From Verrucomicrobiia bacterium (GTDB lineage Bacteria > Verrucomicrobiota > Verrucomicrobiia > Palsa-1439), in assembly GCA_037441425.1 (NCBI GenBank), contig JBBISF010000001.1, positions 632-64,631 of the forward strand: a stretch of 64,000 nt of DNA. Direction: 5' to 3'. Both the position numbers and the translations under genes were made by a program. Below, in pieces: positions 122-33,838 of the stretch. Under the pieces are notes generated by a model. It had not been told where the DNA came from. It did not search any database and worked only from the letters and a program-made list of their open reading frames with translations. Position 1 is the first letter of the stretch. Every line of letters starts with the position of its first letter.

Positions 122-2104
122 ATGACGGAGCAGAAGAAAGCCATTTCCACCGATTCCCTAATGACTGAAACCCGGAAGTTCCCGCCGTCGGCCGAGGTCG
201 TCCGCCGCGCCCACGTCAACGCCGCCCAGTATGCCCAGATGTACGCGCGGTCGGTCAAAGATTCCGACGCGTTCTGGCTGGAGCAGGCCGGCACGCTGGA
301 GTGGTTCAAGCCGCCGACCGTGGCCCGCAAGTTCACCTGGAACACCGATAACCGCGTGATCAAGCACACGTGGTTCGAGGATGGGCAACTCAATCTCACG
401 GTCAACTGTCTCGACCGGCACCTGAAAACCGCGACGGCCGACAAGGTCGCCCTCCTCTGGCAGGGCGAACCGGAAAACGAAGTCAAAAAGATCACCTACA
501 GACAGTTGCACGCCGAGGTGTGCCAGTTCGCCAACGTGCTCAAGTCGCACGGCGTGAAGAAGGGCGACCGGGTGGCGATCTACATGGGCATGGTGCCGGA
601 ATTGCCGGTCGTGATGCTCGCCTGCGCCCGCATCGGGGCGATTCATTCGATCATCTTCGGCGGGTTCAGCGCGGATTCGTTGGCGGACCGGATCAATGAT
701 TCGGCGTGCAAGATGTTGATCACCTGCAACGTGTCATTGCGGGCCGGCAAGCAGATCAAACTGAAGGAGATTTGCGACGAGGCCTGCGCCAAAACCAAGT
801 CCATCGAGACGATGGTGGTGTACCGGCGCACGGCTGATCCGTGCGCGATGCAGCCGGGGCGCGATGTTTGGTATCACGAGGAAATGGCGAAGGCCGCGCC
901 GGATTGTCCGCCGGAAAAACTCGACGCGGAAGATTCTCTGTTCATCCTCTACACGTCCGGCTCGACCGGCAAACCGAAAGGCGTGGTCCATTCCACCGCC
1001 GGCTATCTCCTGCACGCGGCGTTGACGCACAAGTACGTCTTCGACATCCACGATGACGACATTTACTGGTGCACGGCGGACATCGGGTGGGTGACCGGCC
1101 ACAGTTACATCGTCTATGGCCCGCTGTGCAACGGCGCGACCAGCGTGATGTTCGAGGGTGTGCCGACGTTCCCGGATGCCGGGCGGTTCTGGCACATCGT
1201 CCAGAAATTCAAGTGCACCGTGTTCTACACCGCGCCGACGGCGATCCGCGCGCTCATCCGGTTGGGCGACGAATGGCCGAACAAGTACGACCTGAGTTCA
1301 CTGCGCGTGCTCGGCACGGTGGGCGAACCGATCAACCCGGAAGCGTGGATGTGGTATTACAAAGTCATCGGCAAGGAACGCATCCCGATTGTGGACACGT
1401 GGTGGCAGACGGAGACCGGCGGGATTCTCATCACGGCGTTGCCGGGGGCGACGACGTTGAAACCCGGCAGCGCCACCAAACCGTTCTTTGGCGTCGAGCC
1501 GGTCATCCTGCGCGACGACGGCAGCGAGTGCCGTCCCAACGAAGGCGGCAAACTCTGCATCCAGAAACCGTGGCCCGGCATGATGCGCACCACGTGGGGC
1601 GACCACAACCGGTTCATCAGCACGTATTTCACCATGTACAAGAACATCTACTTCACCGGCGACGGTTGCCGGAAAGATGAAGATGGGGATTTCTGGTTGA
1701 TGGGCCGGATTGACGACGTGGTCAATGTGTCCGGCCACCGCATCGGCACCGCCGAGGTGGAAAGCGCGCTGGTCAGCCATCCGAAAGTGGCCGAGGCCGC
1801 CGTGGCCCCGATGCCACATGAGATCAAAGGCCAGGCGCTCTACGCCTTTGTCACGCTGCGGGACGGCGTCCATGAAAGCGAGGAACTGAAGAAGGAACTC
1901 GCCGCCCACGTCCGCAAAGAGATTGGGTCCATTGCCGTGCCGGACAAACTCCAGTTTGCGCCGGCACTGCCCAAAACCCGGTCCGGCAAGATCATGCGCC
2001 GGATCCTGCGCAAGATCGCGGAGAATCAAATTGAACAGATCGGCGACACCACCACCCTGGCCGACCCGCACGTCGTGGAAGTGCTCGTCCAGAACCGGCA
2101 GTAG
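122..2104 (+). CDS. acs: acetyl-CoA synthetase (AMP-forming)
   Basis: 660-aa ORF with the AMP-binding signature [19 protein letters not shown] and C-terminal [11 protein letters not shown]. Length and overall layout are typical of Acs. Confidence 0.95.
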
Positions 2105-2170
2105 ACCGGTGATGGACGCGGCGGCTTGTCTTTCCGCAACGGCTCCCGTAAAAGAGACCAGAGGCGGGCA

Positions 2171-2632
2171 ATGAACTATTGCCATACGCAGAAGGCGCCG
2201 TTGTACCTGACCTTGCTCGGCTTGGCGGCAATCCTCGCCATCGTGGCCGCGCGCCAACCGCCGCGATCACCGGACCGTACGGGACTGTTGCTCGGTGCGG
2301 TGATTGTGACGTTGCTGGCGGCGTGTTTCGGCACGCTGACCGTGCGCGATGCCGGCGAGAAACTGGCCGTCAAGTTTGGCCCGGTTCCGCTGTTCCACAA
2401 GAACATCCGGTACACGGACATGCGCGGTGTGGAAGCCGCCCGGTCCAGCTTCCTGGATGGTTGGGGTATCCACTATCGCCCCGGCGGCGGCTGGCTTTGG
2501 AATCTCTGGGGCTACGATTGTGTCCGCATCCAGCTCCAGAAAACCGCCATCCGCATCGGCACCGACGACCCGCTGGGGTTGACCGCGTTCCTGAAGACCA
2601 AACTCTCGGCGGACGATTCGCGCACCTGCTAG
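2171..2632 (+). CDS. hypothetical membrane protein (two predicted TM helices plus a small soluble domain)
   Basis: In-frame ATG at 2171 (MNYCHTQ...) inside ORF 2126..2632. Two hydrophobic stretches (LYLTLLGLAAILAIVAA, LLLGAVIVTLLAACFG). No family recognised. Confidence 0.45.
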   Translation: MNYCHTQKAPLYLTLLGLAAILAIVAARQPPRSPDRTGLLLGAVIVTLLAACFGTLTVRDAGEKLAVKFGPVPLFHKNIRYTDMRGVEAARSSFLDGWGIHYRPGGGWLWNLWGYDCVRIQLQKTAIRIGTDDPLGLTAFLKTKLSADDSRTC

Positions 2633-3966
2633 AACTTGTAGATCACCGACAACTGCTCACGGAGGCTGTTGCCGCCGGCTTGCGCCTTATAACCCGTGCG
2701 CAAGCAGCTGATTTCGGCGCCGAGTGTCAGGCTGGCGTTGAGGGCGTACTGCGCGTTGCCGAAGACGAGTTCGTTGTAGGTCCGGCCCCCGGTGGCCAGC
2801 TCGTCATCGTTGGGGTCGTCACACCCGGCGCCGACGTTGAACTGCCACCTGGCATCCGGGGTCAGCGTGAGTGCGGCCCAGCCGCCACGGGCGCGAATGC
2901 CCCGGTAATCCGTGGCGCTGACCACGCGCACTCCCTGGCCGACGCCGCCGAGGTAGGCATCGAGGTTTTGCCCGACAAACCCTTCGGCTTGGAGCGCAAG
3001 CCAAGTGGTGACCGGCAACGTCAGGTCCACGTTCAACGACCAAGTGTCCACTTTCCGGTGGGCGTTGTATTCCTGCTGGCCCCAGTGGCCGGAAACACCG
3101 ACCGTGGTTGGTTTCTTCGTCAACAGGGGGAGACTGACGCTGGCCCGACCCTGAACCGTGGGGAATCCGACCTCCTGCCCCGTGTCGTAGTTGGCCCCGG
3201 TCCAGGAATTCGTGCAACCAATCGTGCGCGACGCCGCCAGTTCCAACTTGACGGTCAGATTGTCCGTCACCGGAAGCGATTCGGTCAGGCGGATCTGCGG
3301 GCGCCGGTAACCAATGTCGCCCTGCCACCAGCCGACGGTGTAATTGAGCGTGGGCGTCACCAGCGGCGAGATCACGTCGGCGGTCTGACCGGCCAAGGCG
3401 GTCAGATGCCATTGCGGCCACGTGGCCGTGACGTACGCCTGACGCAGCATCGGGTTGGGTTTGTTCTCCGCGCCACCTCCATAGAAGTCAATCTCGACGA
3501 GACCGGCGGTGGTCAGATCCGGACTGGAGGGACCTTTGAGTATGGCCCCCAACCGGGTTTGGTTGGCCGTTAGGTTGAACAGATCGCTGTGCCGGCCCCC
3601 TTCCTCGGATTCCACCCACCGCGCGTAATCGCCACTGGACGTGCGGGCGGAATCAAATGCCGCGTCGAGCTTGATGTAGCCGTAGAGTTGGAGATCCAGA
3701 CCGGAATGAACCGGTTGGCCTTTGATGGCCGCCAGCGTCTTGAGTTTGCCCACCTCTTCCTGAGTCAACGCCGGAATCGGCGCGGAAGCGCGTTGGTGGA
3801 GCAGTTGTTTGATTTCGCCCAACTCGCCCTCGACTTTCTCCAGGCGCTGACGGAGTTCGGCGTTCTCCTGTTTCAGCGCCTCCACCTCCGCAGGCGCGGA
3901 GTCACCCAACGCCTGCCGACCTGCGAGCAGTGCGAGAACGGACAAAACACGGAAGATATTTTTCAT
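2629..3966 (-). CDS. outer-membrane beta-barrel porin with N-terminal coiled coil (DcaP-like architecture)
   Basis: Signal peptide MKNIFRVLSVLALLAG and a coiled-coil segment (AEVEALKQENAELRQRLEKVEGELGEIKQLL). The body is Gly/Tyr/Thr-rich with alternating residues, and the terminus ...SVIYKF is aromatic as in OM barrels. Confidence 0.6.
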   Translation of the reverse strand: MKNIFRVLSVLALLAGRQALGDSAPAEVEALKQENAELRQRLEKVEGELGEIKQLLHQRASAPIPALTQEEVGKLKTLAAIKGQPVHSGLDLQLYGYIKLDAAFDSARTSSGDYARWVESEEGGRHSDLFNLTANQTRLGAILKGPSSPDLTTAGLVEIDFYGGGAENKPNPMLRQAYVTATWPQWHLTALAGQTADVISPLVTPTLNYTVGWWQGDIGYRRPQIRLTESLPVTDNLTVKLELAASRTIGCTNSWTGANYDTGQEVGFPTVQGRASVSLPLLTKKPTTVGVSGHWGQQEYNAHRKVDTWSLNVDLTLPVTTWLALQAEGFVGQNLDAYLGGVGQGVRVVSATDYRGIRARGGWAALTLTPDARWQFNVGAGCDDPNDDELATGGRTYNELVFGNAQYALNASLTLGAEISCLRTGYKAQAGGNSLREQLSVIYKF

Positions 3967-4032
3967 GGAATCACCCAGTCCATCACCGATATTCAGGCGC
4001 AGTCAGAGCGCCTCTCCGAGGCGCCGAACAGG

Positions 4033-4517
4033 TTAGCACCGGGAATACCAACGAGACACAACATGGACAACAAACGCGAACCGAAGGCCTTGCGCACAAC
4101 CGGTCGCGCGCACGAGGCGACGCGCGGTGACAAAGTGTCGACTCCAACCGCAATTGCTGACACTTTGTCCCGCCGCGCGCTGCATGTCGCGGAACGGCCG
4201 GTTGCTGCCCTGCCACACTGCCGGGTCGCTGCCACTGTGCTGAATGTGAACGCTGACGTACCCGGGACTCGCCCAGAACCGGTCCAGATACTCATAGCCT
4301 TCCCGGGAGCCACCCAGTCCATGCGAAAAGATGATCACCGGAAACGGACCGGCGCCATCCTGCGGATAATAGATGCGTGCCGGCACGGGCCGGTGCCGGG
4401 CTTGATCCACCCAATCCAAGTTGATGACGCCCACCCTGTGCGGTCCCGGTTGCTGATTTGTCCGTACACATCGGCCACCACCAACGCCGACATCATCCAT
4501 TGAAGAATCGGTTTCAT
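4033..4517 (-). pseudogene. alpha/beta hydrolase (PAF-acetylhydrolase / dienelactone-hydrolase-like) remnant, frameshifted and 3'-truncated
   Basis: A signal-peptide-like start (MKPILQWMMSALVVADVYGQ, ATG 4517) is in one frame. The hydrolase core (PARIYYPQDGAGPFPVIIFSHGLGGSREGYEYL...VSVHIQHSGSD) is in another frame, with the shift near 4450. No GxSxG nucleophile region follows, and the porin gene begins at 3966. Confidence 0.5.
4035..4050 (-). promoter_or_regulatory. candidate sigma-54 (-24/-12) promoter upstream of the porin gene
   Basis: The minus strand reads TGGTATTCCCGGTGCT, with GG-N10-GC spacing as in TGGCACG-N4-TTGCW. It lies about 70-85 nt upstream of the porin ATG (3966). The -12 element is GTGC rather than TTGC. 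Confidence 0.25.
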
Positions 4518-5017: not shown

Positions 5018-6342
5018 AATGGGCCGTCGCCATTCTTGTCGTTGCTCTGACCGCGAGCGTTCACGCCCAAGACGCACCCCGCGTTTTGACGCTGGATGAA
5101 GCCATCCGGCTCGCGCTGGCGAAGAACCCGGACCTGGCCACCGCCCAGCAACGCATTGCCGCCGCGCGCGCCGGACTGCGCCAAGCCGACGCCGCATTCT
5201 GGCCACAGGTGCGGGTCAGTGAAAGCTACGCCGCCAGCGACAATCCAGTGCAGGCGTTCATGATGACGCTCAACCAACGGGCGTTCAACTTCGGCGCGAA
5301 CTTCAACCACCCGGAAACCACCGACAATCTCAACACCAAGATCCTCGCCCAATGGTCGCTGTACGACGGCGGGCGCAATGTCGCCACCCGGCAAGCCGCG
5401 CGCCTCGGCGCGGAAGCCACCGAACAATCGCTCGCCGCGGTCCGCAACGACCTTGTCTTTGAAGTCACCCGCGCGTTCCACACCATCGGCAAAGCCCGGC
5501 AATTCATCGCGGCCGCCGCCGCCGCCGTGAACAGCATGGCATCCAACGTCAACGTGGCCAGCAACCGGTTCAGCCAGGGCGCGGTATTGAAGAGCGACCT
5601 GCTTGACGCCGAAGTCCGGCTCGCGGAAGCCCGCGAGAATCTCGTTCGCGCCCGCAACGCGCTGGCCCTTTCGGAAACGGTCTTCCGCAACGTGCTCGGC
5701 GTGGGGGAAGATGAAAATGTGACGGCGGGCGACGGTGGGTTTGGCTCCGACCAAGCCGTTCCGCCGGGCGGCGCGGCGGGACGCGCGCCCGCCAATGAAT
5801 TGGTTGCCCGCCCCGAACTGCTCGCCGCGCAAAAAGCGGTCGCGGCGGTGGAGAAACAAGTGCGGATTGCGGCCAGCGGCAATCGGCCGCATCTCCATGC
5901 GTTTGCGAGTTACGACCTCGACAGCGGTGATGCCCGGCATTATGCCAATAGCTGGGTCGGGGGCGTGAGTGTGGAGTTGAATGTGTTCGACGGTTTCCTC
6001 ACGCGCGGCCAAGTGGCCGAAGCCCGCGCCCATCTCGCCGCCACCCGGGAACAATTGCGCAAACTGGAGTTGGCGATTCAATTCGAAGTCAAACAAGCGC
6101 GGTTGAATCTCGACGAGGCTCAAGCCCGGTTGGAAACCACCACCCATGTCGTGGCCCAAGCCGAAGAAAGCCGGCAGATTACGAAGGACCGATACGCCAA
6201 CGGCCTCGCACTGCTCACCCAGTTGCTCGATGCCGAAACGGCGGTAACCTCCGCCCGGCAACGCCGCGCCGCGGCGAAAGCGGATTATTTGATCGCCCTA
6301 GCCGCCCTCGACCGGGCCTTGGGCAAATCGTGGAAGGAATGA
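5014..6342 (+). CDS. TolC-family outer membrane efflux protein
   Basis: Signal peptide MKWAVAILVVALTASVHAQ at in-frame ATG 5014. Two repeated OEP-type coiled-coil halves (LTLDEAIRLALAKNPDL..., ...AAAKADYLIALAALDRALG). Confidence 0.85.
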   Translation: MKWAVAILVVALTASVHAQDAPRVLTLDEAIRLALAKNPDLATAQQRIAAARAGLRQADAAFWPQVRVSESYAASDNPVQAFMMTLNQRAFNFGANFNHPETTDNLNTKILAQWSLYDGGRNVATRQAARLGAEATEQSLAAVRNDLVFEVTRAFHTIGKARQFIAAAAAAVNSMASNVNVASNRFSQGAVLKSDLLDAEVRLAEARENLVRARNALALSETVFRNVLGVGEDENVTAGDGGFGSDQAVPPGGAAGRAPANELVARPELLAAQKAVAAVEKQVRIAASGNRPHLHAFASYDLDSGDARHYANSWVGGVSVELNVFDGFLTRGQVAEARAHLAATREQLRKLELAIQFEVKQARLNLDEAQARLETTTHVVAQAEESRQITKDRYANGLALLTQLLDAETAVTSARQRRAAAKADYLIALAALDRALGKSWKE

Positions 6343-6345
6343 TGG

Positions 6346-7291
6346 ATGAAACGGACCTCTTGGATTTTTCCGGCGATCGCCCTCCCGTTGCTGTTCGGCT
6401 GCGGGCCGAAACAGGAACGTGCTGAAGACAACCGCCCGGCGGTCAAAGTGCAGACACTCACTGCCGCACTGAAAAGCGTGCCGGACATTCATGAGGTGGT
6501 CGGCACGGTGCGGCCCAAGCTTGCCGCGACGGTTTCCGCCAAGGTCATGGCGTCCATCGAACAAATTCCCGTCACCGCCGGGGACACTGTCACCGCGGGT
6601 CAGTTGTTGGCGAAGCTCGACGACCGGGACCTGCGCGCGGAATTCGAACGCGCCCAAGCCGACTACAACCGCTTCAAGGCGTTGCTCGACAAACAAGCCG
6701 CAACCCGCGCGGAGTTCGACGCCGTGCAATCGCGTTACCGGGTGGCCGAAACCGCACTGAGTTATGCGACGCTCACCGCCCCGTTCACCGGAGTTGTCGC
6801 GCAAAAGTTGTGCGATGCCGGTGATATGGCGGCTCCCGGCAAGCCGTTGTTCGTCATCGAGCAAGCAGGCGCGTTCCGGCTTGAAGCGCAGGTGCCGGAC
6901 CGGTTTGCCGAAGCGGTGGTGGTCGGCAAGAGCGCGAACGTCGTGGTGGATGCTACCGGGGAGAAATGCGCTGGCCCGATCGCGGAAGTCGTTCCGGCGG
7001 CGGATCCCGCCACCCGCAGCTTTCTCGTCAAAATTGATTTGGACTGCCGGCAACCGTTGCGGTCCGGCATGTTTGGCCGCGCGCAACTGCTCATCGGTGA
7101 ACGCACGGCCATATTCGTTCCGAAGTCGGCGCTGCACGAGCGGGGGCAGTTGACCTATCTGTTCGTGGTCACGGACGGCCAGGCGCAGATGCGGCTGGTG
7201 AAACCCGGCAAAGAATATCTCGACGCCGTCGAGATTTTATCCGGCTTGGAACCCGGCGAGAAAGTGGTCGTGCGTGCCGAAGCGGAACTGA

Positions 7292-7320: not shown

Positions 7321-10609
<3,289 letters not shown>

Positions 10610-23233: not shown

Positions 23234-23328
23234 CTCTCTAAATTGTCATTCCTTCCGGTCTGTCGTTCTTCGCCACCGCCTCTTGAAACCAACCTTCACT
23301 CAAATCTCTCCAGCACTGATTTTTCTCT

Positions 23329-24411
23329 TCAATAGGCGCGGCTGCGGCATGGTCGCTTCCCCTTCTTGCCGGGTTTCTTAGCGGAGTCCGCTTGCGCCAA
23401 TTCATAAAACTCATGGAGCTTCTGCTGCAAGAGCTTCTTCGCCGGCAGGCAGGTCTGGTATTCGGCAATGAGCGCGGGCGAGACCGACCGGCTTAGGGCA
23501 TACTCCACGACCTCGTTGTCCTTGGAGGCGCACAGCAGCACGCCGATGGAGGGACGTTCGTGGGGCTTCTTCACGTCCCGGTCGAGCGCCTCCAAGTAGA
23601 ACTCCAGCTTGCCGAGGTATTCCGGTTTGAAGTCGTCAATCTTGAGTTCGAAATCCACGAGGCACTGGAGACCGCGATGGTATAAGAGCAGGTCGGGATA
23701 GAAATCCTGCCCGCCCACCTGCAACTGGTATTGCTCGCCAACAAAACAGAAATCACGGCCCAATTCCAAAAGAAACGTCTTCAGATTGGCCACCAACGCC
23801 CTCTGCAAATCCGCTTCCGAATGGCCTGCCGGCAGATTCAGAAAATCTAGCAGGTAAGAATCCTTAAATACCGTTTCAGCAGTGGGATGTAATTGTCTCA
23901 GCAGTGCCGAGACTTTTGGCGGAGAAAGAACCGCCCGGGCGAACAACGCACCGGCAAGCTGCCGCTCCAACTCGCGGCTCGACCACTTCTCCTGCACCGC
24001 CATGCGCAAATAGAACTCGCGTTCCTCGGCGCGCTTGCAGCCCGCAAGAATTAACACGTTATGCGTCCACGGCAATTGTCTCAGCAGTGCCGAGATTTTT
24101 TCATCCTGCCGGTAAGCCAAATAAAACTGTCGCATCCGAAACAGATTCGGGCGGGCAAATCCGCGAAGATCGGGGTGATGTTGTCTGAGATACCGGGCCA
24201 ATTCGTCCACCACGCCTTCGCCCCATTCTGCCGTCTCAAGCTTGCGGCTGATGTACTCGCCGACTCGCCAGTACAGATTGATCAACTCCGTGTTGACGGC
24301 TTGCAGCGCCCGCGAGCGAGCGGACTGAATCAGCGTAACCACTTCACGAAACGCTGGCTCGTGATCCGCCTTCCGCTTCACAATCCTGCGCTCTGCCTTC
24401 ATTATTGCCAT
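23329..24411 (-). CDS. YhcG/DUF1016-family PD-(D/E)xK nuclease-domain protein
   Basis: The N-terminal helical region is as in DUF1016 (LINLYWRVGEYISRKL, NLFRMRQFYLAY, LPWTHNVLIL, EREFYLRMAVQEKWSSRELERQL). The C-terminal nuclease-like core is DLLLYHRGLQCLVDFELK. Its ATG shares one nt with the nuoL stop (TAATG). Confidence 0.85.
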   Translation of the reverse strand: MAIMKAERRIVKRKADHEPAFREVVTLIQSARSRALQAVNTELINLYWRVGEYISRKLETAEWGEGVVDELARYLRQHHPDLRGFARPNLFRMRQFYLAYRQDEKISALLRQLPWTHNVLILAGCKRAEEREFYLRMAVQEKWSSRELERQLAGALFARAVLSPPKVSALLRQLHPTAETVFKDSYLLDFLNLPAGHSEADLQRALVANLKTFLLELGRDFCFVGEQYQLQVGGQDFYPDLLLYHRGLQCLVDFELKIDDFKPEYLGKLEFYLEALDRDVKKPHERPSIGVLLCASKDNEVVEYALSRSVSPALIAEYQTCLPAKKLLQQKLHEFYELAQADSAKKPGKKGKRPCRSRAY

Positions 24412-27624: not shown

Positions 27625-28655
27625 TACTTGGTCACCACCGCCAGCACCACGCCGGTGATCAAAATGTTCAGGATCGTCAATGGGATGAAAATCTTCCAAC
27701 CCAGCGCCATCAGTTGGTCATACCGGAACCGCGGCAACGTCCACCGCACCCAGATGAAGAAGAACAGGAAACAGAGTACTTTCGCCAGGAAAATTCCGAT
27801 TTGCGCCAGCCCGACGCCCAGCGTCTGCGCGGGCGCATTGAACGGCGCGAACGGCAACGACCACCCGCCGCAGAACAACGTCACCATCACCGCTGATGCC
27901 ACAAACATGTTGGCGTATTCGCCGAGGAAAAACATCGCGAACTTCATCGAACTGTACTCAGTGTGATACCCGCCCACCAGTTCCTGCTCCGCTTCCGGGA
28001 AATCGAACGGCAGCCGGTTGGTTTCCGCAAACGCGCTCACGAGGAAAATGAAGAACGACAGTGCGAGATACGGATAGCAGACGAAGGGCAGATGCCGTCC
28101 TTGGTACTCCACCACCTTCATCAGATTCAACGTGCCGGCCTGCATGAAGACCGGAACCACGCTTAAGCCGAGGCACACCTCGTAGGAAATCATCTGCGCG
28201 CTGGAGCGAATTCCGCCTAGGAATGGATACTTCGAATTGCTCGACCAGCCGGCCAAGACAATGCCGTACACGCCCAACGATGCGACGGCAAAAATAAACA
28301 GGATGCCCACGTTCAAATCCGCGATGACGCCGGTGATCGCGTGTCCGGCAATCGGCAGATTACTACCCCACGGAATAACCGCAATCGTGATCAAGGCCGG
28401 CACCATCGTCAGCGCCGGCGCCAGCGTGAAGTAGAACTTGTGCACGTGCCACGGCAACACGTCTTCCTTGAAAATGAACTTCAGCCCATCCGCCAACGGC
28501 TGCAACACGCCGAACGGCCCGACCCGATTCGGCCCGATCCGGTCCTGCATCCACGCGCAAATCCAGCGCTCGGCCATCACCGTGTACGCCACAATCCCCA
28601 GCATCACGCCGATCACGCAAACGATCTTAATCAAATGGATGATGAGCTCGTTCAT
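27624..28655 (-). CDS. nuoH: NADH-quinone oxidoreductase subunit H
   Basis: 343 aa. [24 protein letters not shown]-like N-terminus ([25 protein letters not shown]) and [15 protein letters not shown] motif. Confidence 0.93.
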   Translation of the reverse strand: [343 protein letters not shown]

Positions 28656-30289
28656 TTCTTATCAGCCACTAATCCACACGAATCTTTAAGAATTGGTGTT
28701 TCATTCGTGTCTATTTGTGGCTTCAATTCGATTCCTTGATCGCCAATCTTCGAAAGATTTAATCCCGCCAAGGCCGGCAACGACCGCGCCATGTCGGCAA
28801 AGACGTCTTCGATGGCGGCGTAGTTTGCGCCAAGCAGTGCGGTCAATGTCTGCCATTCCGGCCGCGCGATGCCCACCGGCTGGATTGCCGCTTGGAAACG
28901 CTGCAACCGGTTCTTCGCATTGATAAACGTACCGCGTTTCTCGGCAAAGGTCGCGCCCGGCAATACGTAGTGCGCGTGCTCAGTCACCTTCGTCGGCAAG
29001 GTGTCGATGACGACGAGCAGATCGAGTTTCTTCGCCAGCTCTTCATCCAAATCCTCGCCGAGCACGACGAGCGTCTTGATCTTGCCGGCTTTGATGCCTT
29101 CGAGAATCTCCGGCAACTTGCCGGTCGCACAACCGGTAAGTTTCGCGCCAGCAGTATTCGAATTCCGGTCGGCTTGTAACAGCTTGCCGTCGGCTTCGCC
29201 GGTATGGGGGACGATGTCCACTATGTCGCCGACGAGTTTCTTGAACAGGAAAAGTTCTTCGGTCGTGGCCCGGGCACTCGCGATGCCGGCGATGTTGCCG
29301 GCGGCTTTGAGCTTACCGGTGATTTGCCGGGTGGCTTCGAGCCAGGTGAGATTGACGCGCTCGCCGTAGACGGCGCTTTTGACGCTCGGCGAGGTGATGC
29401 GGCGCGGGTCGTTGATGAATTTGTAGTTGAGCCGGCCGTAGTCGCACATCCAGCATTGGTTGACGGCGTCGTTGTCGCGCGGCGTTTGCCGGTAGACGAC
29501 GCCTTCGCGCGACCAGAGGACGGTGTTGCAGCCGGTCGCGCAGTTCGGGCAGACCGACTTCGTCTCCTTCAAGAACCAGACGCGTTGCTCAAATCGAAAA
29601 TCCGTCTGCGTCAGCGCGCCGACGGGACAGATGTCGACGATGTTGAGATCGTAATTCGTTTTTGGCTCTTGGCCGGGGTAGCAGGTGAGCGTCGAGTAGC
29701 TGCCGCGGTTGACGAAGCCGAGGCAATCCTGCCCGGCCACTTCTTTCATGAAGCGGATGCAACGCGAGCAGAGGATGCAGCGTTCGTCGTCAAGCGTGAT
29801 TTTCGCGTTGAGCTTGGTCTGTTTCGGCTTGTGCACTTTTTCTTCGACGAACCGGCTCTGGCCTTTGCCGTAGTCGACGCTGAACTCTTGTAACCGGCAT
29901 TCCCCTGCTTGGTCGCAGATTGGGCAATCGAGCGGGTGATTGATGAGGAGAAATTCCATCACGCCTTCGCGCGCTTTGACGACTTTCGGCGAACGCGTGT
30001 GCACCACCATGCCGTCGGCGACCGGTTTGTTGCAGCCGATTTCCAACTTCGGCGCGAACATGATCACCGGCTTGCCGCCTGGCCCGATTTCCGGTTTCTT
30101 ATCTTTATCGAGCTTCGGCATGCCGACATCGCACAAGCACATGCGGCAATTGCCGGCGATGGTCAGCTTCGGGTGATAGCAATAATGCGGCACTTCGATG
30201 CCGGCGATTTTCGCCGCCTCGATGAGGTTCATCCCCTTCGGCGCGACGACTTCCTTGCCATCAATTGTCAGTTTTACAGTATCAGCCAT
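28652..30289 (-). CDS. nuoG: NADH-quinone oxidoreductase subunit G (short form)
   Basis: N-terminal 2Fe-2S and 4Fe-4S motifs (CYHPKLTIAGNCRMCLCDV, HPLDCPICDQAGECRLQ, CILCSRCIRF). The C-terminal tail ...KPQIDTNETPILKDSCGLVADKK is encoded by the repeat element, so the functional C-terminus is uncertain. Confidence 0.9.
   Translation of the reverse strand: MADTVKLTIDGKEVVAPKGMNLIEAAKIAGIEVPHYCYHPKLTIAGNCRMCLCDVGMPKLDKDKKPEIGPGGKPVIMFAPKLEIGCNKPVADGMVVHTRSPKVVKAREGVMEFLLINHPLDCPICDQAGECRLQEFSVDYGKGQSRFVEEKVHKPKQTKLNAKITLDDERCILCSRCIRFMKEVAGQDCLGFVNRGSYSTLTCYPGQEPKTNYDLNIVDICPVGALTQTDFRFEQRVWFLKETKSVCPNCATGCNTVLWSREGVVYRQTPRDNDAVNQCWMCDYGRLNYKFINDPRRITSPSVKSAVYGERVNLTWLEATRQITGKLKAAGNIAGIASARATTEELFLFKKLVGDIVDIVPHTGEADGKLLQADRNSNTAGAKLTGCATGKLPEILEGIKAGKIKTLVVLGEDLDEELAKKLDLLVVIDTLPTKVTEHAHYVLPGATFAEKRGTFINAKNRLQRFQAAIQPVGIARPEWQTLTALLGANYAAIEDVFADMARSLPALAGLNLSKIGDQGIELKPQIDTNETPILKDSCGLVADKK
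28664..28722. repeat. intact (empty) palindromic intercistronic element of the 'cacgaat' family at the nuoG/nuoH junction
   Basis: Arm agccactaatccacacgaat (28664..28683) pairs with attcgtgtctatttgtggct (28703..28722) at 17/20 positions around a 19-nt loop. It lies inside the last about 25 codons of the nuoG ORF. Confidence 0.75.
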
Positions 30290-30296
30290 GTTTTCT

Positions 30297-30316
30297 TAGC
30301 CACGAATTACACGAAT
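30297..30316. repeat. 'cacgaat' repeat arm (left or outer arm of the nuoF/nuoG junction)
   Basis: tagccacgaattacacgaat starts 8 nt from the nuoG ATG. Its inverted partner is at 31635..31665. Confidence 0.7.
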
Positions 30317-30372
30317 AGCCGAGTCCGACGAGACGCCGTCCTCGGCAAACACGAATCCACACAACCCAGCCT

Positions 30373-30403
30373 TGTCATTCTGAGCGAAGCGAAGAATCTC
30401 TGT
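30373..30403. repeat. left copy of a perfect 31-bp inverted repeat (REP-like, core tcattctgagcgaagcgaagaatctctg)
   Basis: Checked base by base. The reverse complement equals 31330..31360. Confidence 0.9.
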
Positions 30404-30423
30404 TGTCCGGTCTGCCGTTTCAT

Positions 30424-31293
30424 TCAACTCGCCTTGTACTCCTCAACAGCTTTTTCAACCAGTTCGGCGAGGAGCTTGTGGCACGGGTTGCAATGTTTTT
30501 GTTCGACCGCTACCCACAATCTCTCGTCATAGATCCCGGCTTCGATACCAGCCTCTTCAAATCGACCAACCCACTTCGCGCCGTCCGAAATATCAACGCG
30601 TAGCTCCAGCCATTTCTTCTTCGGTTTGAAGTCGATGAAGTTGCGGGCACGCAATCCGTCGTGCAACCCGATGTAATACCGGTTGAACTTCAACTGAAGC
30701 TTTGGATCGGCCGTTTGGTTGATGAGATCGAGGAATGTATCAGCCAACTTGACAGTCTCAGGCGTCGCTCTTGTGTTCCAGTAGTCTCGACCAACCGGCT
30801 TGTTCCCCTCGCCTTCATCGTCCTGCCTCAGAGCAACACGGTCGAGGACGCGTACGAAGTCCAACACGATTTGGTCGCCAACCTTGAGAGCATTCAGTTG
30901 TATCGCGATGAACGGAATCGTCCCGGAGAAGAGAGCAAGGATGTTCAGAAACCGGGTAGTGATGTCTTCGGCGACTAATACCGCGCAGTGGTCGTAGCCG
31001 GGGTATCTACGCCTTTCGATGTCCCAGTACTCAATGCACCGAATGATGTGGCTCTCGTCAGTCTGCCCAAGCATCAACTCAACTTCGTACCGGCAATTTT
31101 CTTCACGACTAAACAACAGTAGATCTAGCCGCCCAGCTTTGTCCTGCTTGCGCTCTTGATCAATGACCTCAACGTCTCCCAAACCGAGAATGGTAGGGTC
31201 TTCATAGATGCGGTCCTGAAGCCATCGCTCGGTGAACTCGCCGTGATTCTTCAACTCAATCGGTTCAGGCTTGGTGTATCGGAGAGCAGCCAT
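30424..31293 (-). CDS. hypothetical protein with an N-terminal NucS/DUF91-like PD-(D/E)xK-fold domain
   Basis: 289 aa, AAGGAG RBS at 31301..31306. EDPTILGLGDVEVIDQERKQDKAGRLDLLLFSREENCRYEVELMLGQ resembles the D...E.K nuclease core of NucS-like proteins, but the Lys position reads ELM. The C-terminal half has a YYIGL...F..FKPKKKWLELRV pattern of unknown function. Confidence 0.45.
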   Translation of the reverse strand: MAALRYTKPEPIELKNHGEFTERWLQDRIYEDPTILGLGDVEVIDQERKQDKAGRLDLLLFSREENCRYEVELMLGQTDESHIIRCIEYWDIERRRYPGYDHCAVLVAEDITTRFLNILALFSGTIPFIAIQLNALKVGDQIVLDFVRVLDRVALRQDDEGEGNKPVGRDYWNTRATPETVKLADTFLDLINQTADPKLQLKFNRYYIGLHDGLRARNFIDFKPKKKWLELRVDISDGAKWVGRFEEAGIEAGIYDERLWVAVEQKHCNPCHKLLAELVEKAVEEYKAS

Positions 31294-31329
31294 GTCTTAC
31301 CTCCTTGTTCCTTTCCTGCGACTGGTACG

Positions 31330-31360
31330 ACAGAGATTCTTCGCTTCGCTCAGAATGACA
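31330..31360. repeat. right copy of the perfect 31-bp inverted repeat
   Basis: acagagattcttcgcttcgctcagaatgaca is the exact reverse complement of 30373..30403. Confidence 0.9.
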
Positions 31361-31532
31361 GGGCGAGGGAGGAGGGGCGGCACGATAGCGTATCCGCTGA
31401 CGTAGCTGCCGTTCGTCGTGTGCGTCCACGTCCATTGCACGTCTTCGTTCGGCGCGAGCATGACGCCTTGAACCGCTGGCGCCCCCGGCAGGGCTGATTG
31501 CGGTGCTAAGACCCAACGAATGCCGGCTTTCC

Positions 31533-31622
31533 TAGCCACTGATTCACACAGATGGGACACGGATCGGCGCTTCGCAGAAGCGCCGCTACACCGTCTGTGT
31601 TTATCTGTGTTCATCTGTGGCT
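31533..31622. repeat. palindromic element, 'cacagat' variant of the cacgaat family, with an inner hairpin
   Basis: tagccactgattcacacagat (31533..31553) pairs with atctgtgttcatctgtggct (31603..31622) at about 17/21 positions. An inner 7-bp hairpin ggcgctt-cgcag-aagcgcc lies at 31566..31584. Confidence 0.65.
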
Positions 31623-31634
31623 TCAATGCCGGCC

Positions 31635-31665
31635 ATTCGTGTTTATTCGTGTTCATTCGTGGCTA
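31635..31665. repeat. 'cacgaat' repeat arm (right or outer arm of the nuoF/nuoG junction)
   Basis: attcgtgtttattcgtgttcattcgtggcta. It encodes the last residues and the stop of nuoEF (..SSHE, TGA at 31653..31655). Confidence 0.75.
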
Positions 31666-33404
31666 CTGCCGTTGCCGTTCTTCTTGCAGGCCGCCTCGAA
31701 TTCGCTGCGGTAATTTTTTAGGAACGCTTTGACCGGCCACGCGGCGGCTTCGCCGAGGGGGCAGATCGTTTTGCCGTCGATATTGTCGGCGACTTCGAAG
31801 AGGAGATCGACGTCCTCCGGGCGGCCGTGGCCGTCTTTGATGCGGTGGAGCATTTTCTCCATCCAGAGCGTGCCTTCCCGGCACGGCGTGCATTGACCGC
31901 AACTTTCGTGGGCGTAAAATTGGGAGACGTTGAGCGTGGTGTCGACGATGTTGACATCTTCGGTGAGGACGACGATGCCGCCGCTACCGGCCATCGTGCC
32001 GGCTTTGCGGAGGCTTTCGAAATCGAGGGGGACGTCGAGATTATTCGCAGGCATTACCGGCATTGAACTCCCACCGGGAATGACGCCTTTGATTTTCTTG
32101 CCGTCTTTGACGCCGCCGCAAACGTCTTCGATGAGTTGGCGCATCGTGAGTTTGCCCATCTCGAATTCGTAGTAGCCGGGGCGTTTGACTGGACCGCTGA
32201 CGCAGACGAGTCGCGTGCCGGTCGAGCCGGGGACACCCATCGCTTTGAACCACGCCGCGCCGTTTTTGACGATGTGCGGGATGTTTGAAAGAGTCTCGAC
32301 GTTGTTGACGACGGTCGGGCAGCCGAACAAACCGACGATGGCCGGGAACGGCGGTTTGATGCGCGGGTAAGCGCGTTTGCCTTCGAGCGATTCGATGAGG
32401 CCGGTCTCTTCGCCGCAAATGTACGCGCCCGCGCCGCGGTGGACGTAGATCTCGGCGGTCTTGCCGACGTAACCTTTGGCGCGCGCTTCTTCTATGGCTC
32501 CCAGAAGAATCTGCGCGCCGACCGGCATCTCACCGCGAATATATATGTAGGCCACCTTCGCGCCGGTCGCGTAACAGGAGATGAGGATGCCTTCGATGAG
32601 CTGGTGCGGATCGTAATTGATCAGTTGCCGGTCCTTGAAAGTTCCCGGCTCAGACTCGTCGGCGTTGCAAACGAGGTACGTCGGCTTGCCGGTATTCTTC
32701 GCGAGGAAACTCCATTTGAGACCGCATGGAAAACCGGCGCCGCCGCGTCCGCGAATCTCGCTGTTTTTGACTTCGTTGACGATGTCCTCGGGCTTCATCG
32801 TCAGCGCTTTCGCCAACGCCTGATAGCCGCCTTCCTTCTCGTAATCGGTCAGCGAGCCCGTGTAGCCGGGTTTGGTGATGTTCGCGAGCAGGATGCGTTT
32901 TTCGAGCGGATGCGCCGGTAACGGCTTGGCGACCGGCTCTTTCGCGAGCGTGCCGGTGCGCTTGATGTCGGCGATGATCTGGTCGAGGCGTTCCGGCGTC
33001 ATCCTGTCGTAATGCTCGTCATTGATCATCATCGCCGGGCCGGTGCCGCACGAGGCGAGACATTCAACGGTCGAGACTTCGAAGTCCGGGCCGAGATTTT
33101 TCAGGCGTTCCAACAGTTTCGCGCTCCCGGCCAGTTGACAGGAGAGTGTCCGGCAAATCTTGATGTGAAACCTGGCGCGCGGCTTCTGCGTGAACATCGG
33201 GTAGAACGTGACCACTTCCCAGACATTGATCGGCTGGAGGCCGAGTTTGCCGGCAATCCATTCGACTTGTTCCGCGCCGAGACAGCCGCAGTGATCCTGA
33301 ATCAAATGACAGAGCCACAACACCGCCGCCCGTTTCGTCGGGTAATGCGTGATGATCTCGTCGATGTGACGTTCGAGGTCGGCAGGGATGATTAAGTTAG
33401 CCAC
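31653..33404 (-). CDS. nuoEF: fused NADH-quinone oxidoreductase subunits E and F
   Basis: The N-terminal about 150 aa is NuoE-like (YPTKRAAVLWLCHLIQ, ICRTLSCQLAG, CLASCGTGPAMMIND). The rest is NuoF (GRGGAGFPCGLKW, ESCGQCTPCREG). It is one 583-aa frame with a GTG start at 33404 inside the repeat. Confidence 0.9.
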   Translation of the reverse strand: MANLIIPADLERHIDEIITHYPTKRAAVLWLCHLIQDHCGCLGAEQVEWIAGKLGLQPINVWEVVTFYPMFTQKPRARFHIKICRTLSCQLAGSAKLLERLKNLGPDFEVSTVECLASCGTGPAMMINDEHYDRMTPERLDQIIADIKRTGTLAKEPVAKPLPAHPLEKRILLANITKPGYTGSLTDYEKEGGYQALAKALTMKPEDIVNEVKNSEIRGRGGAGFPCGLKWSFLAKNTGKPTYLVCNADESEPGTFKDRQLINYDPHQLIEGILISCYATGAKVAYIYIRGEMPVGAQILLGAIEEARAKGYVGKTAEIYVHRGAGAYICGEETGLIESLEGKRAYPRIKPPFPAIVGLFGCPTVVNNVETLSNIPHIVKNGAAWFKAMGVPGSTGTRLVCVSGPVKRPGYYEFEMGKLTMRQLIEDVCGGVKDGKKIKGVIPGGSSMPVMPANNLDVPLDFESLRKAGTMAGSGGIVVLTEDVNIVDTTLNVSQFYAHESCGQCTPCREGTLWMEKMLHRIKDGHGRPEDVDLLFEVADNIDGKTICPLGEAAAWPVKAFLKNYRSEFEAACKKNGNGSSHE

Positions 33405-33428
33405 GAATGCACACGAATGTTCACGAAT
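33398..33428. repeat. left 31-nt 'cacgaat' arm flanking the GxxExxY gene
   Basis: tagccacgaatgcacacgaatgttcacgaat matches the reverse complement of 33808..33838 at 28/31 positions. Confidence 0.85.
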
Positions 33429-33453
33429 CGGCTGGTCATTACATGACCAGCCG
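33429..33453. other. 11-bp perfect stem-loop containing the GxxExxY stop codon
   Basis: cggctggtcat-tac-atgaccagccg, immediately adjacent to the left arm. Confidence 0.7.
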
Positions 33454-33819
33454 TTTGAATTCGCACTTCGTCCTTCCGAAGTTGGTCAACACGCCGACCT
33501 TCAGCCCGGTTGCCTTCAAATAGTTTAGCAACTGCGCTTCGTGCTGTTTGTTGTATGTTTGCTCGGCTTTCAATTCTACGATCACTTTGTCATCAACTAT
33601 CAAATCGGCCACGTAGTCACCCACGATGGCTTCTTTGTACTTCACTTTCAGCGCGTGCTGCGCTTCCACTTTCACGCCGCGTTTGGCCAACTCGATCAAC
33701 AGTGCGTTCTCATACACCTTCTCTAAAAATCCGTATCCCAAAACATTGTGCACCTCGAACGCCGCTCCCACAATTTGACCGACCAAATCGCCATGAATCA
33801 GTTCCTTATTCGTGTCCAT
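33439..33819 (-). CDS. GxxExxY-family protein (PD-(D/E)xK nuclease fold)
   Basis: 126 aa. IVGAAFEVHNVLGYGFLEKVYENAL..EL (the GxxExxY motif), DLIVDDKVIVELKA (D..ExK core), AQLLNYLKATGLKVGVLTNFG. Confidence 0.88.
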   Translation of the reverse strand: MDTNKELIHGDLVGQIVGAAFEVHNVLGYGFLEKVYENALLIELAKRGVKVEAQHALKVKYKEAIVGDYVADLIVDDKVIVELKAEQTYNKQHEAQLLNYLKATGLKVGVLTNFGRTKCEFKRLVM

Positions 33820-33838
33820 TCGTGTGGATTCGTGGCTA
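33808..33838. repeat. right 31-nt 'cacgaat' arm flanking the GxxExxY gene
   Basis: attcgtgtccattcgtgtggattcgtggcta. It contains the GxxExxY ATG (33819) and the nuoD stop TAG (33836..33838). Confidence 0.85.

Follow-up and report, generated by a model that had tools for sequence, protein, structure and literature searches.

Probable Ssn-type hairpin repeats around a predicted nuclease gene in a variable slot of the nuo operon of a Verrucomicrobiia bacterium

Small directional hairpin repeats that accompany a nuclease gene were described in Neisseria, where the repeat NTS (CGTCATTCCCGCGMAVGCGGGAATCYRG) flanks ssnA, the gene for a 94-amino-acid (aa) single-domain GIY-YIG protein (Chenal et al. 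2025, PMC11893778). SsnA binds the motif as single-stranded DNA (ssDNA) only and on one strand, cuts a few nucleotides (nt) upstream of it and does not bind RNA (PMC11893778). Three nt on the 5′ side of the palindrome are critical, as is the C on its 3′ side, which matters for binding; cleavage needs an unpaired HGTC tag immediately 5′ (PMC11893778). Ssn-related motifs (SRMs) occur near 71% of ssnA homologues, the NTS–ssnA–NTS arrangement was likened by its authors to an insertion sequence, NTS clusters surround other genes too, and the role of Ssn nucleases and repeats outside Neisseria was left explicitly open (PMC11893778). Here, we describe a locus of comparable layout in a 64,000-nt stretch of a Verrucomicrobiia bacterium genome (hereafter the window; GenBank GCA_037441425.1, contig JBBISF010000001.1, positions 632 to 64,631), in which an open reading frame (ORF) of 289 aa, predicted to encode a nuclease, lies within a perfect 31-base-pair (bp) inverted repeat between the respiratory genes nuoEF and nuoG.

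Two further systems provide a frame for this locus. Repetitive extragenic palindromes (REPs) and their paired form, REPINs, are short imperfect palindromes with an unpaired tetranucleotide tag, as are the CGTC-tagged REPs (Bertels & Rainey 2011; PMC3733652), a class without a dedicated transposase to which the Neisseria dRS3 repeat belongs (Di Nocera et al. 2013, PMC3733652). The arms of the inverted repeat described here would be related both to NTS and SRMs and to CGTC-tagged REPs, with TGTC as their tag. Neisseria minimal mobile elements and dRS3-bounded regions, in turn, are strain-variable whole-gene cassettes that lie between two conserved genes, have dRS3/NTS-type repeats as their bounds and are exchanged by homologous recombination. 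The window differs from these in that its flanks are cistrons of one essential operon, so that a cassette would of necessity be co-transcribed with them. On balance we favour, as a probable though far from certain picture, an SRM-bounded cassette slot at a hot spot rather than a transposon encoded by the ORF.

The gap between nuoG and nuoEF measures 1,363 nt, all genes here lie on the minus strand, and the nested layout of a roughly 1.36-kb insert of non-nuo DNA given in the original prediction was confirmed:

28652–30289, minus strand: nuoG
30297–30362, minus strand: nuoG-proximal outer 'cacgaat' arm, pairing with 31630–31665
30369–30406, minus strand: downstream inner arm, coding strand GAGATTCTTCGCTTCGCTCAGAATGACA, a (−)-type copy of the Ssn-type repeat
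30424–31293, minus strand: 289-aa ORF
31300–31306, minus strand: Shine–Dalgarno sequence AAGGAGG of the 289-aa ORF, read directly in the sequence
31327–31364, minus strand: upstream inner arm, coding strand TGTCATTCTGAGCGAAGCGAAGAATCTC, a (+)-type copy with the G.A strand
31363–31521, minus strand: conserved core of a micro-ORF, abutting the upstream inner arm
31533–31622, minus strand: complete hairpin of the 'cacagat/cactgat' type, whose loop holds a GC mini-hairpin
31630–31665, minus strand: nuoEF-proximal outer 'cacgaat' arm, overlapping the nuoEF stop codon at 31653
31653–33404, minus strand: fused nuoEF

An inverted-repeat search delimits the inner repeat as 38 nt of 95% complementarity (30369–30406/31327–31364), and base-by-base reading gives the perfect 31-nt core at 30373–30403/31330–31360 exactly as it had been predicted. 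The 25-nt core of the arm occurs twice in the window against 0 expected (100 shuffles), and direct reading of the flanks of the inner arms revealed no target-site duplication. The two arms stand close to the ORF: the downstream arm begins 20 nt past its stop codon, and the upstream arm lies about 41 nt ahead of its ATG, with the foreseen ribosome-binding site, AAGGAGG, 6 nt before that ATG. The whole insert sits inside the loop of a resident intercistronic hairpin, in the same orientation as nuo.

In sequence and organization the arm resembles NTS and the SRMs. It has GTCATTC...GAATC in common with NTS; an unpaired (H)GTC tag stands 5′ of the semi-palindrome, with the arm's T 86% conserved across 128 copies; the semi-palindrome is of the 20–50-nt hairpin kind, here a 5-bp stem with a GC/GC tip; and a C follows directly 3′ of the palindrome (...AGAAT-C), the next T and C being 75% and 60% conserved in the arm. 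Both repeats are directional and intergenic, form doublets and occur in a repeat–gene–repeat layout, and both have a single-domain GIY-YIG partner, of about 95–125 aa in the case of the arm, flanked on both sides. The arm differs in the tandem G.A mismatches of its stem and in its GCGAAGC tip, in supplying the last 7 codons and the stop of the GIY-YIG gene, and in that the gene flanked in the window encodes a NucS-like PD-(D/E)xK nuclease, with no intact ssn-like gene in view. The arm class is, moreover, identical over at least 14 phylum-level groups, whereas the Neisseria study stresses lineage-specific pairs (PMC11893778). The arm is accordingly placed in a divergent class that is SRM-like, and not taken for a proven SRM. 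The analogy to a REP-flanked gene that had been drawn from the window came close to the truth. The arms appear to be Ssn-type hairpin repeats; like REPINs they form inverted doublets and flank a nuclease gene. They differ from the REPs of REP-associated tyrosine transposases (RAYTs) in that the arm-associated enzyme is not an HUH tyrosine transposase, in the TGTC tag and in their minimal copy number in the window. The flanked HUH/Y1 transposase of a REPtron is missing, since Pfam, NCBIfam and fold searches give PD-(D/E)xK and not Y1_Tnp, which agrees with the expectation that the ORF would encode no recognizable transposase.

Searches for further copies of the repeat, as had been proposed, were productive. 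The exact 25-mer GTCATTCTGAGCGAAGCGAAGAATC is present in at least 120 genome contigs and 35 viral contigs from at least 14 phylum-level groups, the genome contigs coming from Acidobacteriota, Chloroflexota, Bacteroidota, Firmicutes, three groups of the candidate phyla radiation, Cyanobacteria, Nitrospirota, Nitrospinota, Planctomycetota, Verrucomicrobiota, Campylobacterota, Helicobacter and others. The suspicion that these could be ordinary REPs private to one lineage does not hold for an arm family that is pan-bacterial and has a small GIY-YIG nuclease gene as its cognate. Roughly one copy in two belongs to a short doublet, with 30–100 nt between the arms and the GTCATTC end outermost, and the other half are solitary. 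A conservation profile of 128 copies (GTC invariant by construction) falls to background directly outside T-[25-mer]-CTC. Each arm forms a mini-hairpin of its own, ATTCT / tandem G.A / GCGAAGC / AGAAT; its GCGAAGC part has been described as an 'extraordinarily stable mini-hairpin' in DNA (PMC13037366). The stem occurs as ATTCT/AGAAT (206 copies), ATCCT/AGGAT (21), ACCCT/AGGGT (11) and, more rarely, ATGCT/AGCAT (3), ATGTT/AACAT (2) and ATACT/AGTAT (2). Fully paired stems were found in 44 of 90 non-consensus arms against 12 expected (maximum 21 in 1,000 shuffles), a pattern of substitution showing that compensatory changes maintain the 5-bp stem. Literature searches on the arm sequence and on a link of GIY-YIG to REP/REPIN found nothing.

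The arm's connection to GIY-YIG genes is clearest in the genes themselves. Clean arm–GIY-YIG–arm units occur in Opitutus sp. GAS368 (locus L253), a Gracilibacteria metagenome-assembled genome (MAG; L014) and a viral contig (L247), with further units at nuoG/nuoH in L213 and at nuoL/nuoM in L256, the latter an intact cassette at the junction where the window has a decayed copy. In L253 the order is (+)arm, 11 nt, ATG...GIY-YIG, with the stop codon within the (−)arm, and the (+)-type arm is upstream on the coding strand in all seven cassettes examined. The genes match Pfam PF01541 and encode single-domain proteins of 94–125 aa. When the GIY-YIG protein of L213 was compared with its 120 best homologues, 85 of them proved to carry C-terminal tails encoded by the arm, compared with 0/120 in the family of the 289-aa ORF and 0/120 in the NuoG family; 64 of these end in ...DSSLRSE and a stop, 13 have LRCAQND, 5 have AALRMT and 3 have the opposite arm. 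DSSLRSE-stop is the arm read in one frame, such that the 3′ arm gives the last 7 codons and the stop of the GIY-YIG gene. These tails and units show, at the level of sequence, that the usual partner of the arm is a small single-domain GIY-YIG gene with the arm as its 5′ and 3′ boundary. The association is strong from the gene's side and not from the repeat's side; the converse proposition, that most arms adjoin GIY-YIG genes, was rejected (1/120 genome loci and 1/35 viral loci).

The same arms bracket unrelated genes: besides GIY-YIG genes in L014, L253, L256 and L247, they surround both a DUF2130 gene and a GIY-YIG gene in L213, a trpC-like gene in L115 and a 68-aa ORF. As a separate observation, the trpC-like gene, at 3560–4640 of L115 and in a genome unrelated to the window, is bracketed with 1 and 5 mismatches and has inverted GCAGAAT heptad arrays outside the arms; the nested architecture is accordingly not limited to accessory genes. 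In other phyla, too, an Ssn-type arm is surrounded by heptad-repeat outer arms (GCAGAAT, CAGCTNT or GTGTTTC). In L089 (4323–4493), L104 (4815–4953) and L029 (77–192) the organization is unlike that of the doublets: the arm, or units similar to it, is repeated in tandem, with periods of about 28, 57 and 20–25 nt, respectively.

By its NuoG homologues the window falls within Verrucomicrobiota. Comparison of the nuoEF/nuoG junction in relatives, listed with the identity of their NuoG to that of the window, revealed a series of contents:

L212 (NuoG 89%): empty apart from one 'cacagat' hairpin, z = −9.3
L210 and L216 (NuoG 92% and 90%): ORF6N, an insert without arms
L217 (NuoG 87%): ORF6N, 107 aa and NOV_C
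L213 and L215 (NuoG 90%): PhdYeFM, PIN and a 129-aa micro-ORF, then DUF2130
L258 (NuoG 85%): ORF6N, 88 aa, a methyltransferase and a HinfI endonuclease

These comparisons show the junction to be a hot spot in this verrucomicrobial clade, with at least six contents among relatives of 85–92% NuoG identity. Around the DUF2130 gene of L213 and L215 the same arm forms an inverted repeat of 36 nt (94%), and 'cacgaat' outer arms of 34 nt enclose the whole insert. Observed alongside, L258 holds at 1463–4405 a complete type II restriction–modification pair, an N6/N4 methyltransferase and a HinfI-family endonuclease, inside the nuo operon between nuoEF and nuoG, and L213 holds a PhdYeFM/PIN toxin–antitoxin pair at 2342–3000 of the same junction.

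Where the cargo differs between lineages, their homology begins and ends at the inner arm edges. Between the window and L213 the arms are 94–97% identical, the nuo coding DNA 83–86% and the 200-nt segment directly upstream of the (+)arm 78%, and the sequence between the arms is unrelated. Both window arms read GAGCGAAGCG where both L213 arms read GAGCGCAGCG, which amounts to one compensated difference. On the nuoG side, alignment of the window, L213 and L258 shows homology that starts about 7–9 nt inside the (−)arm, with a different gene upstream in each; as this start is the same whatever the upstream gene, the arms mark the boundaries of the exchanged segment.

The 289-aa ORF itself appears to be a nuclease gene of wide distribution. 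An AlphaFold model built from a 41-sequence family alignment (predicted local distance difference test, pLDDT, 90.7) gives an N-terminal NucS/EndoMS-like PD-(D/E)xK domain and a C-terminal DUF5655/MotA-CTD-like domain; in Foldseek searches the best PDB matches of the former are EndoMS/NucS 5gke_A and 2vld_B (E = 2 × 10^−4, probability 1.0), and the latter resembles YdhG-like, T4 MotA-CTD and DR2400-type folds. Sequence methods yielded less: Pfam, NCBIfam and PADLOC had no model at threshold and only a weak DUF5655 match, no PADLOC anti-phage defence family appeared at E ≤ 1, and sequence searches of the PDB found no match for either the single sequence or the family profile. Scans of the 41 members one by one returned weak NucS_C matches in 3 (best E = 0.0012) and DUF5655 in 7, and in a viral library the best full-length match was Gp54 of Bacillus phage G, followed by RecB-like and restriction-type nucleases. 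A PD-(D/E)xK catalytic domain with a NucS_C fold is thus supported by the model at fold level. The motif GRLDLL...YEVELML...HIIRCIEYW parallels the NucS pattern G.xDLL...VExK...QLxxY, and D57, E70, E72, D79, H82, R85 and E88 are invariant in the alignment. YEVELML comprises E70, E72 and M74, and position 74 is M or Q across the 41 members in place of the catalytic lysine, as the reading ELM at that position had suggested. The NucS N-terminal domain is missing, the C-terminal domain taking its place. The proposal of a NucS-like N terminus thus stands for the fold and fails for membership, as the protein is not of the NucS family: architecture, lysine position and Pfam score all speak against it.

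This family numbers more than 7,000 proteins at E ≤ 1 × 10^−3, usually of 53–61% identity and at most 67%, from Planctomycetota, Bacteroidota and others, and named, where a name is given, 'PDDEXK family nuclease' or 'DUF5655 domain-containing protein'. Carriage on plasmids is rare (14/72,556 records, many of them partial-protein matches). The GC content at third codon positions of the ORF is 63%, against 74–82% for the nuo genes, a foreign base composition consistent with horizontal acquisition. We collected 80 metagenomic loci that encode relatives, 75 of them with usable flanks, and in none of the 75 did a flanking inverted repeat exceed its own shuffle control; the inverted-repeat score of the window was 32 and that of the next best locus 14. 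The arm repeat is therefore not a property of the ORF, and the idea of an ORF-specific element is refuted, none of the 75 loci being flanked by the same repeats. The arm motif was likewise missing from 386 kb of these loci, apart from loose regular-expression matches in L007 and L138 and the Logan contig L009, which is the window's own cassette. The closest homologue (67%) has an acyl-CoA dehydrogenase gene on one side and an ORF6N gene on the other, without an inverted repeat. Neighbours across the family are heterogeneous, both defence-type (Mrr_N, TIR_2, EcoRII, Type ISP, ParB_N) and housekeeping, and no conserved partner gene was found. L009 (986 bp) is the cassette as assembled independently, and its two ends fall exactly on the outermost bases of the arms; such ends are expected if a perfect inverted repeat of 31 bp is collapsed in an assembly graph with k = 31, which calls for caution with assemblies of such loci.

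Following from these results, we postulate that two Ssn-type hairpin repeats in a repeat–gene–repeat layout make up the 31-bp inverted repeat, with the 289-aa ORF as cargo and not as the enzyme of the repeats. The arms would owe both their seeding and their maintenance to an Ssn-like GIY-YIG ssDNA nuclease in the lineage and would delimit a slot within which accessory, selfish or defence genes are swapped by recombination, the homology being supplied by the 30–38-bp arms, by the highly conserved nuo flanks or by the two together. With the published polarity of Ssn, which cuts ssDNA 5′ of the motif and solely on the G.A strand, each strand of a cassette would be cut just outside its 5′ boundary, and a cut on ssDNA would part the cargo from one flanking homology, modulating exchange. 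The cargo would be expressed by read-through from the nuo transcript. Insertions may survive only in hairpin loops, where they would be tolerated because the nested stems re-form and keep the AGCCAC...GUGGCU-AAGAAAAC-AUG geometry before nuoG.

Several results weigh against the cassette slot and its supposed nuclease. Exchange through recombination at the arms was not observed as such; it is deduced from the breakpoints of three or four lineages. A GIY-YIG gene lies within 8 kb in only 1/120 arm-bearing genome loci, most arms being solitary, and the family signals of the arm-associated GIY-YIG proteins consist of Pfam GIY-YIG and a weak match to the UPF0213 structures 1zg2 and 1ywl. The 64-kb window contains no intact GIY-YIG gene, only a 3′ remnant at 23238–23330, and holds two copies of the arm, with no hint of a large repeat population. 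The published SRM regular expression, HGTCWYN(0-2)YYVSBRHN(0-5)WNVSBRGN(0-2)RNCYNB, finds the NTS control and neither the window arm nor the L213 arm, because the tandem G.A positions break its S/B/R positions; and by nearest-neighbour RNA parameters a single arm is no more stable than shuffled sequence.

The alternative that fares best, which we nevertheless regard as rather unlikely, is coincidence: a nuclease gene, accessory or for defence, in a permissive intergenic site between two solitary REP-like repeats that have no functional or exchange role. It would accommodate the arms around a housekeeping gene (the trpC-like gene of L115), the solitary state of about half of the copies, the heterogeneous neighbours of the ORF family, including the defence genes Mrr_N, TIR_2, EcoRII and Type ISP, and the arm-less ORF6N inserts that the junction takes in L210 and L216. 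It is harder to reconcile with the position of the only two copies in 64 kb, which flank a single ORF at distances of 20 and 41 nt and face outward in the canonical way, with L213, where the same site has the same topology around a different gene and both arms carry the private variant GAGCGCAGCG in place of the window's GAGCGAAGCG, or with breakpoints at the inner arm edges in three lineages.

A device acting at the level of RNA seems to us quite improbable, and is not exclusive of the cassette slot. Here the 38-bp inner stem and the outer stem would loop the insert out of the nuo mRNA, insulating the expression of nuoEF–nuoG and controlling that of the ORF, with the repeats selected for pairing, much as the stems of 23S rRNA intervening sequences are cut by RNase III; the Coxiella 23S intervening sequence is a precedent (PMC4990558). 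Minimum-free-energy and centroid folds of the 1,381-nt insert as RNA both give the nested stems, outer with outer and 31-bp inner with inner. At empty junctions the hairpins are very stable (z = −9.3 and −4.7) and have the same base, AGCCAC...GUGGCU, after which comes AAAGAAAC-AUG, and the compensated difference between window and L213 arms is specific to each pair. Against this, a stem spanning 920 nt across a translated ORF is unlikely to last in vivo, SsnA does not bind RNA (PMC11893778), and the arms are conserved across phyla in sequence and not in structure alone, which argues for recognition of DNA by a protein.

A broader extension, that Ssn-type arms are a general cassette-exchange platform, in the manner of an integron or a minimal mobile element but driven by ssDNA cleavage and arm homology, is speculative and in our view improbable; as part of the same reading, unrelated genes (GIY-YIG, NucS-like, DUF2130 and restriction–modification) would be swapped in fixed slots of essential operons. 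A further possibility is that the NucS-like/DUF5655 protein itself could be an alternative cognate enzyme, a PD-(D/E)xK-based analogue of Ssn, because the substrates of NucS-type nucleases are mismatched or branched DNA and the arm, when extruded, would have tandem G.A mismatches. Least plausible by far is the initial reading as an autonomous minimal transposon, with 31-bp terminal inverted repeats (TIRs) recognized by the 289-aa PD-(D/E)xK protein as an unconventional transposase: the compact TIR–ORF–TIR unit of about 990 bp with its perfect arms, the predicted nuclease with a DNA-binding-like C-terminal domain and the foreign base composition of the ORF would fit it, but flanking repeats are missing from all 75 homologous loci and from the closest homologue, the same arms surround DUF2130, GIY-YIG, trpC-like and 68-aa genes, no target-site duplication exists, and the arms are ancestral at the junction with cargo that differs between lineages. 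Homing endonuclease genes of the free-standing kind and 23S rRNA intervening sequences are alike in placing small nuclease or selfish ORFs in or between essential genes, co-oriented, bounded by inverted repeats and variable among close relatives; the slot would differ in having no cognate target site, intron or intein and in taking several unrelated families.

The outer 'cacgaat' arms proved real, the decamer-periodic pattern CACGAATNNACACGAAT matching 8 times in the window against 0.17 expected, and exclusively at nuo junctions, though their pairing is imperfect: 92% over 13 nt at 30309–30321/31630–31642 and 87% over 15 nt at 30348–30362/31639–31653. In the nuoG-proximal arm, CACGAAT units recur with decamer periodicity (30301, 30310 and 30350), a small GC hairpin at about 30319–30345 interrupting the series, and L213 and L258 have an orthologous segment. 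The hairpin at 31533–31622, likewise foreseen, folds at −45.1 kcal/mol (z = −5.4) and is the counterpart of the sole element at the empty L212 junction. Rfam gave no match over the whole window at the gathering threshold and chance snoRNA/sRNA matches alone at E ≤ 10 over 30250–31700; on these negative results the feature is not a known RNA family. A ribozyme reading (hammerhead or other) of CUGAGCGAAGCGAAG was ruled out by hand, the core positions misfitting, with Rfam also negative, and a promoter and terminator scan gave nothing above shuffle expectation.

The micro-ORF next to the upstream arm extends in full from 31297 to 31656 on the minus strand (119 aa), starting inside the cacgaat arm ('MNTNKHEW') and running on through the (+)arm, with its conserved core, IRWV.APQS.LPGAPAVQGVMLA.NEDVQW.WTHTTNGSYVSGY.IV, at 31363–31521. 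Over the 47-aa core, the window and L213 (3169–3327) differ by 20 synonymous and 11 non-synonymous codons, distributed 8/8/27 over the codon positions (27/43 at the third), a pattern indicative of purifying selection. Relatives of 55–125 aa form 119 clusters with no Pfam match and the motif ...V.W.WTHT..GSYVSGY.I, and the micro-ORF is a separate small-protein family outside the arm-bounded cassette. The translation of one relative, P0361, goes on '...AVILNKATNL-SRADGPKKRP-GSFASLKVIS...', which resembles a (+)arm in degenerate form and part of a (−)arm, separated by a loop of 10 codons, and may represent a cargo-free doublet state of the same slot.

Comparable features lie elsewhere in the window's nuo operon:

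23238–23330, minus strand: GIY-YIG 3′ remnant (...WRDLSEGWFQEAVAKNDRPEGMTI and stop) with a degenerate arm, following the YhcG/DUF1016 gene
23329–24411, minus strand: YhcG/DUF1016 PD-(D/E)xK nuclease gene inserted between nuoL and nuoM
28664–28722: decamer-periodic hairpin
33439–33819 (region 33402–33834), minus strand: GxxExxY/PDDEXK_3 gene in a cacgaat hairpin loop at nuoD/nuoEF

The cacgaat arms of the GxxExxY/PDDEXK_3 gene lie at 33402–33428 and 33808–33834, and its L212 ortholog lies in 'cacagat' arms instead. Most nuo cistron junctions sampled in L212 have decamer-periodic hairpins of CACAGATNNN or CACGAATNNN units (at about 969–1019, 2278–2705, 4432–4483, 6080–6102, 7173–7226, 7802–7859, 8387–8451 and 8773–8794). 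The unit sequence varies among close relatives, and the hairpin base AGCCAC/GTGGCT is kept.

The repeat type, the GIY-YIG partnership and the repeat–gene–repeat layout have been known since 2025. What is new is an arm sequence class outside the published search pattern and identical across many phyla, the arm as the coding 3′ end of a GIY-YIG nuclease gene, arms that bracket non-GIY-YIG nucleases (NucS-like/DUF5655 and DUF2130), and the match in position between arms and cassette breakpoints at a hot spot that takes several states within an essential operon. For annotation, the arms call for caution, as they yield spurious 'SEAKNL/LRFAQND/DSSLRSE' peptides. The window is one instance, known from its sequence alone; the natural series at one junction, with at least six contents, links the arms to cassette turnover, because the homology breakpoints fall exactly on the conserved arms. 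Toxin–antitoxin, restriction–modification and several nuclease genes are housed in intercistronic hairpins of an essential respiratory operon, which bears on how selfish genes persist.

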